Shown piece by piece: positions 12,001 to 15,000 of a stretch of 50,384 nt of DNA. The position numbers are program-made. How positions within the stretch are numbered: the stretch's first letter is position 1; every line of letters begins with the position of its first letter. Source of the stretch: a virus (taxonomy: Duplodnaviria > Heunggongvirae > Uroviricota > Caudoviricetes); the IMG/VR virus record IMGVR_UViG_2880412407_000006. One strand, given 5' to 3'.

Positions 12001-15000
12001 GTGTTCTTGCCAGAGAGCTGGTTGCCAGTGGCGATTTATACAACTCCGGCTACGGGTTATTTCCGTCTGAACAGGCACGTAAGGACTGGATAAAGGCCCG
12101 CAAAAAGATGTCGAAAGCAGCAGTGAAAAAAAAGAGCGACCCGGACCTGGTTTATTCATTACCAGACGGAGAAATACGCCGCTACGACAGGCGCCTGAAT
12201 ATAATCTGTCGCGAGTGCCGGAAGAGCGAAGCTATGCAGCGTGTACTGGCTTTCTATCAGGGTAATTTTCAGGAGGTAGCGCAGTGAGTGCACCGGCAAC
12301 CATTCTTGATATGTGCTGTGGCAGTCGCATGTTCTGGTTCGATAAGAATGACGACCGGGCGATATTTAGCGATATCAGAAAGGAAGAGCACACATTGTGT
12401 GATGGACGACGCCTGATTATCAGTCCTGATCTGATAGCTGATTTTCGTGCACTACCATTTGCAGACGCATCTTTTTCGATGGTTATATTCGATCCTCCGC
12501 ATCTTGAGCGTGTTGGTGATAACGCCAGGATGGGAAAGAAATATGGACGGCTGAATAAAGATACCTGGCGTGATGATTTGCGGCAGGGATTTAAAGAAGC
12601 CTTTCGTGTGTTGCGTCCATACGGCGTTCTGATTTTTAAATGGAATGAAACGCAAATACCTGTTCGCCAGATATTGGCACTGACCGACAGAAAACCTGTT
12701 ATCGGTCAACGAACAGGAAAAAACGATAAAACCCACTGGATTATTTTTATGAAATAGGCATCCAGTGAGTAGGTTAGTAAGGTTACAGATACGTATATCT
12801 GAATAATTAAATTCAGTTCTGTAAATAAAATTTAATCCTTAACCGGAGGGATTTCTGCACCCTCAGAACATCAGGAGGCCGCCCGAAAGGGCGGAACAGA
12901 TAATGCTTACGTTGAAACATTTTATCGACATACCAACATGGTTAGCCGTCATTGCTTTTGTTAAAATACACATCCACTTTTCTGTGCAATGTTTAACCAC
13001 TGGTCATATCAAATGGCATTCATGCGAACCATGATATAGAATCATGGCTTGAGAGAGTCGATGAAAGCGCAACTATGGTATGAGAGACATTGATGTAAGA
13101 AAGGCTGTGCATGCCAAGATTCTGAGAGATCATCATAAAGATCCTGACACCCTAATCATTGATGAGTTTACGATGAATCTAGGGGCTAGCAGAGCTGATA
13201 TAGCAGTGATCAATGGGCTTATACATGGTTATGAGTTGAAGAGCAAGAGTGATAACTTGCTCAGATTACCAGCGCAGGTGCAACATTACTCATCAGTGAT
13301 GGATAAAGTAACTTTGGTTGTCTCTGATTGCCATCTTTATGATGCTTTAAGCATAGTTCCATCATGGTGGGGGATAAAGCAAGTTACGCAAGGTGCACGG
13401 CAAGGTATCCATTTAAAAACAATTCGAACTAGCAAGTTGAATCCACAAGTGGACAAACTTTCCTTAACAATGCTTCTTTGGAAAGATGAATTGCTTTCCC
13501 TATTAAGTGATGTAGGGGAGCTACAGAATTTGAAAAATAAACCTAAACGCGTCTTATGGTCAAAACTCGCCAATAGTATGGATGTTGGCGAGCTTCGTGA
13601 AGCTGTTCGAGTTAAACTTAAAGCCCGTAAAGAGTGGCGAGTTGCTCAACAACCTTAGTTATGTGATGGTTTTGCCCAATCCTACGCCATACCTCTGGGC
13701 TACCAAATTTATAGTTACCAGAGGGATTGGCTTTGTAGGCTTGATACTCGTTTGCATAATATTCTATGTCTCTATCTCCCGCACAGAATGTAGGCCCTGA
13801 ATATTCTCGATGAGCAAGAATATCCTCACTATGTTTACCATATTGTTCATAACCAAAGCGATTAGCTACTCTTCCTCGAAATACCCAAAAGTCATTATCT
13901 CCAGAGTATCTGACGCTGGCAGATACGCTAGGGAATCGCGTCGAAAGCCTATTAAAGTCGGGGTGCTGTACTCCATAATCACTATAAATCACATTTCTGG
14001 CAAGTTCTTTTCTATTCATTAAACTCTGCCATAAAATCCACTCGATTCGAGGTTGAGAATATAGACCAACAGAAATATCACTGAGATCTGTAGGAAATGA
14101 ACCCCCAGAAAGAATCACTTTTCTGTATTCATTGAGGTGCGCCAGATTGTTTATCAATCCCATTGCCAAAGTATATAGTTCGCCGGAATTAATTTTATCC
14201 TCGGTTAACTCATCTCTTAAGTCAATAATTATATCAATATTTGATAAAGGAATTCCCAGATGATTAATGTAATGCGTTATTAATTGTGGGTTAACCAGAT
14301 CTAACGTGGTTAATCTCAAGCATATTTCATTCTGCATTAATTCATCAATCGCTCTTTTATAGTTAGATGGGCGAGTTGGTGAACTGACAGGAATAACTCT
14401 TATCCCCATATCTCTAACTTGATTAACCGCATTTATTATAGGGTAATGATCTTCAGGAGAAATAAAATGCTCTTCAATTAATAATCCATCAATATAAACA
14501 CCTTGCATATCTGAGCAAGATTTTGAGACTTTCTTTCCGAACTCTATAAGAGTCTCGTTATAACTCTTTAAGGCAATACCTGAATCAGGGTCAATTGGCA
14601 CTGGTTCAATTTCGAGTAATGGCAAAATTTTTGATTTCTTTTCAATGGATAGCTGCGATAAAGCTGATAACTCAGAACGTTTCGCTTTCAGAATAGGAAT
14701 ATATGAAATTGTCATGTTAATACCTTATACAGAATCAATTAACAATTAATGGTTCTTCGGACATTGAAATTTATATCGCAAAAATTGGCAAACTCTCCTC
14801 GACTACTCACTTGTGGGTATCCTGGCGTAAAAGGAATGACTTGGCAATACCCGGTGTGATCATAAGTCATTGAAAATGATCATTTTTATCAGTCTTTCTT
14901 CCATGATGAATGCTAATGCCATTTGATTTGTTGAGGTGAAAACTGTTAAAAATCAAAACGATGTAATTGAAATGAACGTTCGGTAGCATTCACGCTTTAA

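Follow-up and report, generated by a model that had tools for sequence, protein, structure and literature searches.

The window analyzed here is a stretch of 50,384 nucleotides (nt) of DNA from a virus of the Caudoviricetes (IMG/VR record IMGVR_UViG_2880412407_000006), which is 100% identical to chromosomes of Escherichia coli O121:H19 and, as read from its sequence, is a Rac-type lambdoid prophage at ttcA in this serotype. The gene at 12284..12757 on the plus strand, which closes the early replication operon of this prophage, is a member of a known, widespread, and poorly studied family of minimal phage methyltransferases. Its product is probably a DNA amino-methyltransferase resembling M.NgoMXV, which would methylate the phage DNA and shield it from host restriction. 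This reading is based on the location of the family in early or replication modules of phages across four host phyla, the recurrence of DNA methyltransferases among its neighbors, and the link to M.NgoMXV and M.NgoDCXV. A phage anti-restriction methylase had already been suggested in a preliminary description of this sequence, and these lines of evidence make it the best-supported reading, with DNA as the substrate that we infer.

A minimal methyltransferase gene and its catalytic core

The gene encodes 157 amino acids (aa), with a GTG start and a TAG stop, and its product is identical to the RefSeq protein WP_001275735.1, which is labeled “class I SAM-dependent methyltransferase” (SAM, S-adenosylmethionine). 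Given the matches to the family PHROG 954, “DNA methyltransferase” (E = 3.8e-85), and to the PADLOC model MTase_II (PDLC03288; E = 1.5e-71), the thousands of homologs, and the identical RefSeq protein, the gene is, at the level of the sequence, a real one rather than a chance open reading frame (ORF). The methyltransferase-like ORF of 157 aa that had been reported at this position is thus borne out by the sequence and by both sets of profiles.

The initiation region is compact. A Shine-Dalgarno sequence, AGGAGG (12271..12276, plus strand), lies 7 nt 5' of the GTG, within the 3' end of the preceding gene, and the GTG at 12284 overlaps the TGA of that gene at 12285-12287, forming a GTGA start/stop overlap (12284..12287, plus strand) that is a signature of translational coupling. 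The preliminary description had noted this overlap, and the AGGAGG can now be added to it. The upstream gene (11856..12287, plus strand; start at 11871 according to RefSeq) encodes a DUF977 protein, which matches Pfam PF06163 (E = 9.3e-30) and PHROG 142, “Ren-like exclusion protein” (E = 3e-46). The same 4-nt overlap recurs with other upstream genes in other E. coli prophages and in the Gordonia phage Pickett.

From the left, the prophage carries intR-xisR-rcbA-ralR-recT-recE-kilR, the repressor region, and ydaT, followed by ydaU (DUF1376), ydaV (DnaC/IstB-like), DUF1627, DUF977, and the methyltransferase gene. The right part comprises an sce7726/Beta-protein pair, an IS3 element, hokD, a doc-like toxin gene, DUF1367/1364/1133, and the lysis genes. 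No sigma-70-like site was found between the upstream replication genes and the methyltransferase gene. As the gene stands last in the early operon and is coupled to the DUF977 gene, its product is expected to be made only upon derepression of the prophage or upon phage infection.

The protein contains both of the motifs that had been noted previously. Motif I, ILDMCCGS, occupies residues 7-14 (12302..12325, plus strand), where it forms the first beta strand and the SAM-binding loop, and aligns to motif I of PH0226 and of Methyltransf_25. Motif IV, DPPH, occupies residues 70-73 (12491..12502, plus strand), in the catalytic loop that follows the fourth beta strand, with the strand at E64-70 of the model directly before it; motifs of the DPPH type are typical of the exocyclic-amino methyltransferases. 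Motif I is N-terminal to motif IV, which is the gamma-type order, and the first residue of motif IV is an aspartate. In 92 representatives of the family, with 41-61% identity, D9, D30, P48, P71, P72, and R108 are invariant, while L8, C12, G13, R32, D53, F54, D70, H73, Y87, G88, W95, K119, and W120, among others, are conserved in at least 90%.

The fold was predicted with AlphaFold, initially from 15 close homologs, with a mean predicted local distance difference test score (pLDDT) of 59, and again from an alignment of 57 sequences, which raised the pLDDT to 87.5. The second model contains a seven-stranded catalytic core alone, with a glycine-rich loop after the first beta strand and an acidic residue at the end of the second, as in the class I (Rossmann-like) SAM methyltransferases, and with the DPPH tetrapeptide right after strand 64-70, as in the exocyclic-amino methyltransferases. 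The predicted fold is that of an amino-methyltransferase-like class I enzyme and is equally compatible with a DNA or an RNA substrate. The protein, which is basic, with an isoelectric point (pI) of 9.4, is thus predicted from the model to be a class I SAM methyltransferase reduced to its core and lacking a target-recognition domain (TRD).

The preliminary description had considered the protein too short for a TRD, and this agrees with both the model and the longer homologs. These homologs have heterogeneous N-terminal (50-140 aa) and C-terminal extensions that share no Pfam domain, one of which is a fused DUF6291. The extensions were considered as potential TRDs and rejected, given their heterogeneity and the lack of a common domain, and they are better explained by mis-called starts or fusions. 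This heterogeneity indicates, in turn, that the core of approximately 150 aa is the functional unit. Many Enterobacterales homologs of 248-259 aa (P0011, P0022, P0054, P0081, and P0107) have a conserved C-terminal extension of approximately 90 aa with no Pfam match (for example, ...ETVWPAEV.MV..QIENAG.LPAHHQRRLKHHINRMWLEKMPVPAIV...), which may be an accessory domain or result from fusion with the phage gene downstream.

Family distribution and the probable substrate

The family is large. Approximately 7,700 clusters at 90% identity match the protein in a large protein database, while a library at 50% identity contains 233 representatives at E ≤ 1e-30 and 1,141 at E ≤ 1e-10, and 254 genomes of a phage collection encode a member. 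Homologs with 47-65% identity are found in phages of Gordonia, Enterococcus, Listeria, Streptococcus, Staphylococcus, Lactiplantibacillus, Porphyromonas, Vibrio, Acinetobacter, and Mannheimia, and the hosts of the temperate phages that carry the family belong to the Proteobacteria, Firmicutes, Actinobacteria, and Bacteroidetes. In all the phage contexts examined, the gene lies within an early, replication, or recombination module, and often overlaps the preceding stop codon. A C5-cytosine DNA methylase gene is directly adjacent in the Gordonia phage Pickett and in a Porphyromonas phage, and a second DNA methyltransferase is located within 4 kb in eight of 39 Firmicute prophage loci, in one case (L054) immediately 3' of the gene. 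The M.NgoMXV gene itself has reportedly been found in a tandem arrangement with one for a C5-type methyltransferase, which would match this adjacency.

In E. coli, the gene was recovered from 854 of 5426 complete genomes (about 16%), with at least 80% of its length covered. It occurs there in at least four kinds of context other than the junction found in the window. Copies follow DUF977 in Rac- and Qin-type prophages; in an O157 strain, and in two others that share its degenerate prophage, a pseudogene copy follows a yfdR-linked ORF; and in a P22/lambda-like prophage the gene lies within the ea region, flanked by an anti-RecBCD gene and ead/Ea22. In the degenerate, CPS-53-like prophage of the O157 strain 180-PT54 and of strain HB6, the pseudogene has an internal stop, and in the Qin-like prophage of strain KL53 the homolog is truncated to 118 aa. 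Such pseudogenes and truncated copies indicate that the gene decays readily in cryptic prophages.

The link to a characterized enzyme comes from the names and the sequences of other members. The NCBI, UniRef, and IMG records name family members “DNA N-4 cytosine methyltransferase M.NgoMXV”, including several streptococcal proteins and a Klebsiella variicola protein, the 90% cluster of which has proteins 86% identical to that of the window. The methyltransferase of the Streptococcus iniae prophage Javan275 (AGM99825.1, ASL35717.1) shares 49% identity with the window protein over 151 aa (E = 6e-56), and is very probably M.Sin248ORF1949P, given its accessions and its position in the prophage. M.Sin248ORF1949P (QMA0248_1949), a prophage methyltransferase of S. 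iniae, is reported to be 95% identical to M.NgoDCXV (AJ004687.2), an orphan gamma-class N4-methylcytosine (m4C) methyltransferase with the target GCCHR, and GCCHR methylation was not seen in the S. iniae lysogen (bioRxiv 10.1101/2019.12.17.880476). This lack of methylation in the lysogen is consistent with the silence expected of an early phage gene.

The catalytic motif is relevant here too, given that the typical motif of the m4C enzymes is SPPY. A mutagenesis paper on the “catalytic aspartate” of M.NgoMXV is cited by Loenen et al. (PMC3874165), and an aspartate in this role fits a DPPx motif rather than SPPY. When species-representative genomes were scanned with the S. iniae protein, copies with 95-96% identity appeared in streptococci only, and no close relative in Neisseria. 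The absence from these Neisseria genomes, set against the reported 95% identity to the gonococcal enzyme, suggests either a recent transfer across phyla or a question about where the original clone came from. Copies of the streptococcal form (loci L019-L038) share 92-96% identity among S. iniae, S. oralis, S. mitis, S. pseudopneumoniae, S. suis, and S. caballi.

The literature was also searched for the family by motif, by accession, and by PHROG or PADLOC identifier, and nothing was found. Mentions of NgoAXV in a gonococcal methylome paper refer to NgoAXVI and NgoAXVII, which are not the relevant enzyme, and an apparent match to “GCCHR” in PMC13342612 is a false one (“GCchr”).

Under the anti-restriction reading, derepression or infection would lead to the transcription of the early rightward operon, and ribosomes that finish the DUF977 gene would start again at the overlapping GTG. 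The enzyme, small and basic, would bind SAM through motif I, D30, and D53/F54, and would then methylate an exocyclic amino group of the replicating phage DNA placed at the DPPH loop. The most likely target is the N4 of cytosine, by analogy with M.NgoMXV and M.NgoDCXV (GCCHR), although the N6 of adenine is possible. As there is no TRD, the readout of the sequence must come from loops of the core, which predicts a short, degenerate specificity similar to GCCHR, or a broader one, and the conserved loop at 74-95 (KKYG...W) and the hairpin at 141-152 are the candidate elements for this readout. The modified progeny DNA would, in turn, resist a subset of the host restriction systems.

A number of observations weigh against this interpretation. 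The homology to a characterized enzyme depends on transferred names and the statement of a single paper, and the Javan275 protein is equated with M.Sin248ORF1949P from accessions and prophage position. The link to M.NgoMXV is indirect, and the scan of species-representative genomes found no Neisseria copy. With only 49% identity, moreover, the window protein may differ from M.NgoDCXV in specificity and even in the base that it methylates. By neither sequence nor fold can the protein be assigned to a curated family of DNA methyltransferases. In Pfam, for example, there is only a generic match to Methyltransf_11 (22.7 bits, against a cutoff of 21.2; E = 1.6e-4), with Methyltransf_25 below its cutoff at 20.4 bits, and the best relatives in the PDB are generic or RNA methyltransferases. 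Matches to PF01555 (N6_N4_Mtase) remain sub-threshold in 23 of 57 relatives, the best having E = 0.0018 and approximately 18 bits against a threshold of 26.7; these matches cover only positions 2-60 of the profile, and the order of the motifs is the opposite.

Classification by hidden Markov models, which had been proposed as a check in the preliminary description, gave outcomes that differ by library. The phage and defense libraries assign the protein strongly to DNA-methyltransferase families, with the PADLOC orphan methyltransferase model (PDLC03730) also matching at E = 2.2e-49, whereas Pfam is generic only. An NCBIfam scan of the protein returned nothing meaningful, PF01555 did not match the window protein, and PF05869 (phage T1 Dam/Hia5 family) matched neither this protein nor any of the 57 members at E ≤ 1. 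Sequence and profile searches of the PDB recovered PH0226 (E = 6e-6), with non-significant matches to Trm11, RsmD, and TTHA0409, and these leave the class of substrate undivided. A best homology to RNA or small-molecule methyltransferases, together with no DNA methylation signal upon expression, had been named as the result that would speak against a DNA methylase; among the PDB structures the best relatives are generic or RNA methyltransferases, while the phage and defense libraries point to a DNA methyltransferase.

Two other candidate members were excluded from the family. The “putative methyltransferase” YfdM of CPS-53 in E. coli K-12, considered as a truncated member, has no similarity to it, and cds16 of the pneumophage SpSL1, an “N6 adenine MTase” with no activity detected (PMC6755750), is a PF01555 enzyme.

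Alternative explanations and the neighboring cassette

The rival that survives best is that the copy in the window is decaying, with an intact ORF that encodes an inactive enzyme, although this is rather unlikely. The codon for residue 82 (12527..12529, plus strand), in the conserved loop after motif IV, is AGG (Arg) instead of the TGG (Trp) of the relatives, and column analysis found Trp at this position in 100% (alignment A1) and 98% (alignment A3) of the relatives with at least 50% identity. This W82R substitution, which counts against an active anti-restriction enzyme as well, may impair or reduce the activity of the window copy. The pseudogenes in all three of the O157 or O157-like degenerate prophages examined and the truncation of some copies point the same way, and there is also an IS3 insertion next door, while sister strains have a frameshifted ydaU and an IS3-associated deletion. 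Against this, the ORF is full-length, it retains all the catalytic and SAM-binding residues that are invariant or at least 90% conserved, and position 82 falls below the 80% conservation threshold of the column analysis in the wider family. The exact protein was also found on at least 1000 contigs, which indicates that it is stably maintained in the lineage. The window copy may thus be fully active, weakened, or inactive.

A further alternative, which is improbable, is that the protein is a nearly non-specific methylator of DNA, lacking a TRD and acting as a shield against restriction in general, or an enzyme that acts on a conserved RNA or a nucleotide-derived immune signal. Either a general shield or a universal substrate would account for the unusually high identity (approximately 50%) across four phyla, and the family would then be among the most widespread uncharacterized counter-defense enzymes of phages.

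An RNA amino-methyltransferase, modifying a conserved host RNA (for example, N2-methylguanine or N6-methyladenine in tRNA or rRNA), is an equally improbable explanation. Such enzymes score no higher in the structural comparison than generic small-molecule methyltransferases do, the sequence matches are non-significant (E 0.3-1), and the substrate-binding domains of these enzymes (THUMP and N-terminal domains) are absent here. The position in the replication module, the adjacent C5 and N6/N4 DNA methylases, and the M.NgoMXV link also point to DNA rather than RNA. A non-nucleic-acid substrate, such as a protein glutamine, as in HemK/N6AMT1, or a nucleotide-derived immune signal methylated as a means of counter-defense, is more improbable still, given the basic pI of the protein and given that the DPPH motif, the module position, the DNA-methyltransferase neighbors, and the M.NgoMXV link favor DNA.

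The region 3' of the gene contains a cassette of different composition. The GC content of the methyltransferase gene is 0.445, in comparison with 0.50-0.535 in the four upstream genes of the replication operon, and it decreases to 0.40 in the 322-nt spacer that follows and to 0.41 and 0.37 in the two cassette genes. In many genomes, homology starts only at ~12799-12830, just 3' of the methyltransferase stop codon, and this breakpoint, together with the GC drop, upholds the earlier view that the gene borders an AT-rich cassette. The first cassette gene (13080-13658, plus strand) belongs to the sce7726 family (NCBIfam NF033832, E = 1.7e-56; PADLOC “cll”, E = 2.4e-28), and its translation appears on reading to have a D...E-x-K-like (PD-(D/E)xK) pattern. 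The second (13618-14715, minus strand) encodes a Beta_protein (PF14350, E = 3.8e-52; PADLOC PD-Lambda-2_C, E = 1.8e-41, and “beta”). The two genes are convergent, with 3' ends that overlap by 41 nt, and in many E. coli prophages the pair occupies the interval from the replication genes to hokD. It looks related to the gop-beta-cII abortive-infection locus of P4 and to the third component of PD-lambda-2 (PMC9519451; bioRxiv 10.1101/2023.04.06.535777), but differs from these systems in having no gop or HigB-like partner and in the orientation of its genes.

The preliminary description had also raised the possibility of a modification component working with this cassette. Such a restriction-modification-like unit, in which the methyltransferase would be the self-protection partner of the sce7726/Beta pair, is suggested by the adjacency of the genes across the spacer, the PD-(D/E)xK-like pattern, and the matches of the cassette to defense-system models, but it is extremely unlikely and, as a claim, is refuted by the distribution of the two modules: the junction occurs in only eight of the 5426 complete E. 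coli genomes, always with a 100% identical junction sequence (two of these genomes are labeled O121:H19 and one O121), in comparison with the 854 that have the gene, and in many genomes the same cassette occupies the same slot with a 66-aa ORF replacing the methyltransferase. Neither this cassette nor a nuclease partner was found beside family members in the phage contexts examined in other phyla, and the break in composition and a separate promoter-like site mark separate modules. The methyltransferase and the cassette thus assort independently.

The IS3 element (15269-16440, minus strand) separates the cassette from hokD. Strain 2014C-3599 has the same order as the window, with hokD to the right of IS3, but in strain 2014C-4423 a truncated tail-tip gene is joined directly on that side, which suggests that most of the prophage was lost there through an IS3-associated deletion. 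Just 3' of IS3 are a HokD-type type I toxin gene (16507-16689, plus strand) and a gene for a toxin of the death-on-curing (Doc) family (~17099-17584, plus strand), which, together with the cassette, form a cluster of toxin and defense cargo between the replication and nin-like regions.

Significance and comparison with known systems

The exact protein is already present in RefSeq, and the family is cataloged by PHROG, PADLOC/REBASE, and NCBI, although it has no dedicated Pfam or NCBIfam model or solved structure, and appears to be biochemically unstudied, apart from the old work on M.NgoMXV. The core of the family, with approximately 150 aa, no TRD, and helices A-C largely lost, is about the smallest methyltransferase linked to DNA modification. 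The specificity of the family, once established, would permit a better prediction of the restriction systems that are evaded, and may provide a compact tool for the writing of m4C.

The nearest characterized enzymes are M.NgoMXV and M.NgoDCXV of Neisseria gonorrhoeae, which have in common with the window protein a gamma-like motif order, a motif IV that begins with an aspartate, an orphan and prophage-borne condition, and the name given to family members. They differ in that identity to the streptococcal/NgoDCXV type is only approximately 49%, and that the allele in the window has the W82R substitution. The beta-class enzymes of PF01555 share the segment from motif IV to the fifth beta strand (DPPH...W..l..gF.E.fRVLkp.G.l), which is reflected in the weak match to the first ~60 positions of the profile, although their motif I is C-terminal, in a circularly permuted arrangement, and a TRD is present. 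Trm11, RsmC, and RsmD, the top Foldseek matches, have the same class I core with a (D/N)PP(Y/F) loop, but the similarity is non-significant (E 0.3-1), their RNA-binding domains are absent here, and they are cellular housekeeping enzymes rather than early phage products.

A second group of comparable enzymes is formed by Hia5/M.HindVII, M.Btr192IV, the T1 Dam group (PF05869), and M.EcoGII, which are also small or poor in TRDs, prophage-encoded, and silent in lysogens. These enzymes write N6-methyladenine and have a DPPY motif, whereas the family in the window has DPPH, is linked to m4C, and is separate in sequence. The Hia5-type adenine methyltransferases have relaxed or no specificity, and are presumed to protect the phage DNA from many restriction enzymes (PMC3299994, PMC5778455, PMC4996451). 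By analogy, the gene in the window most plausibly works in the manner of these TRD-less prophage adenine methyltransferases.

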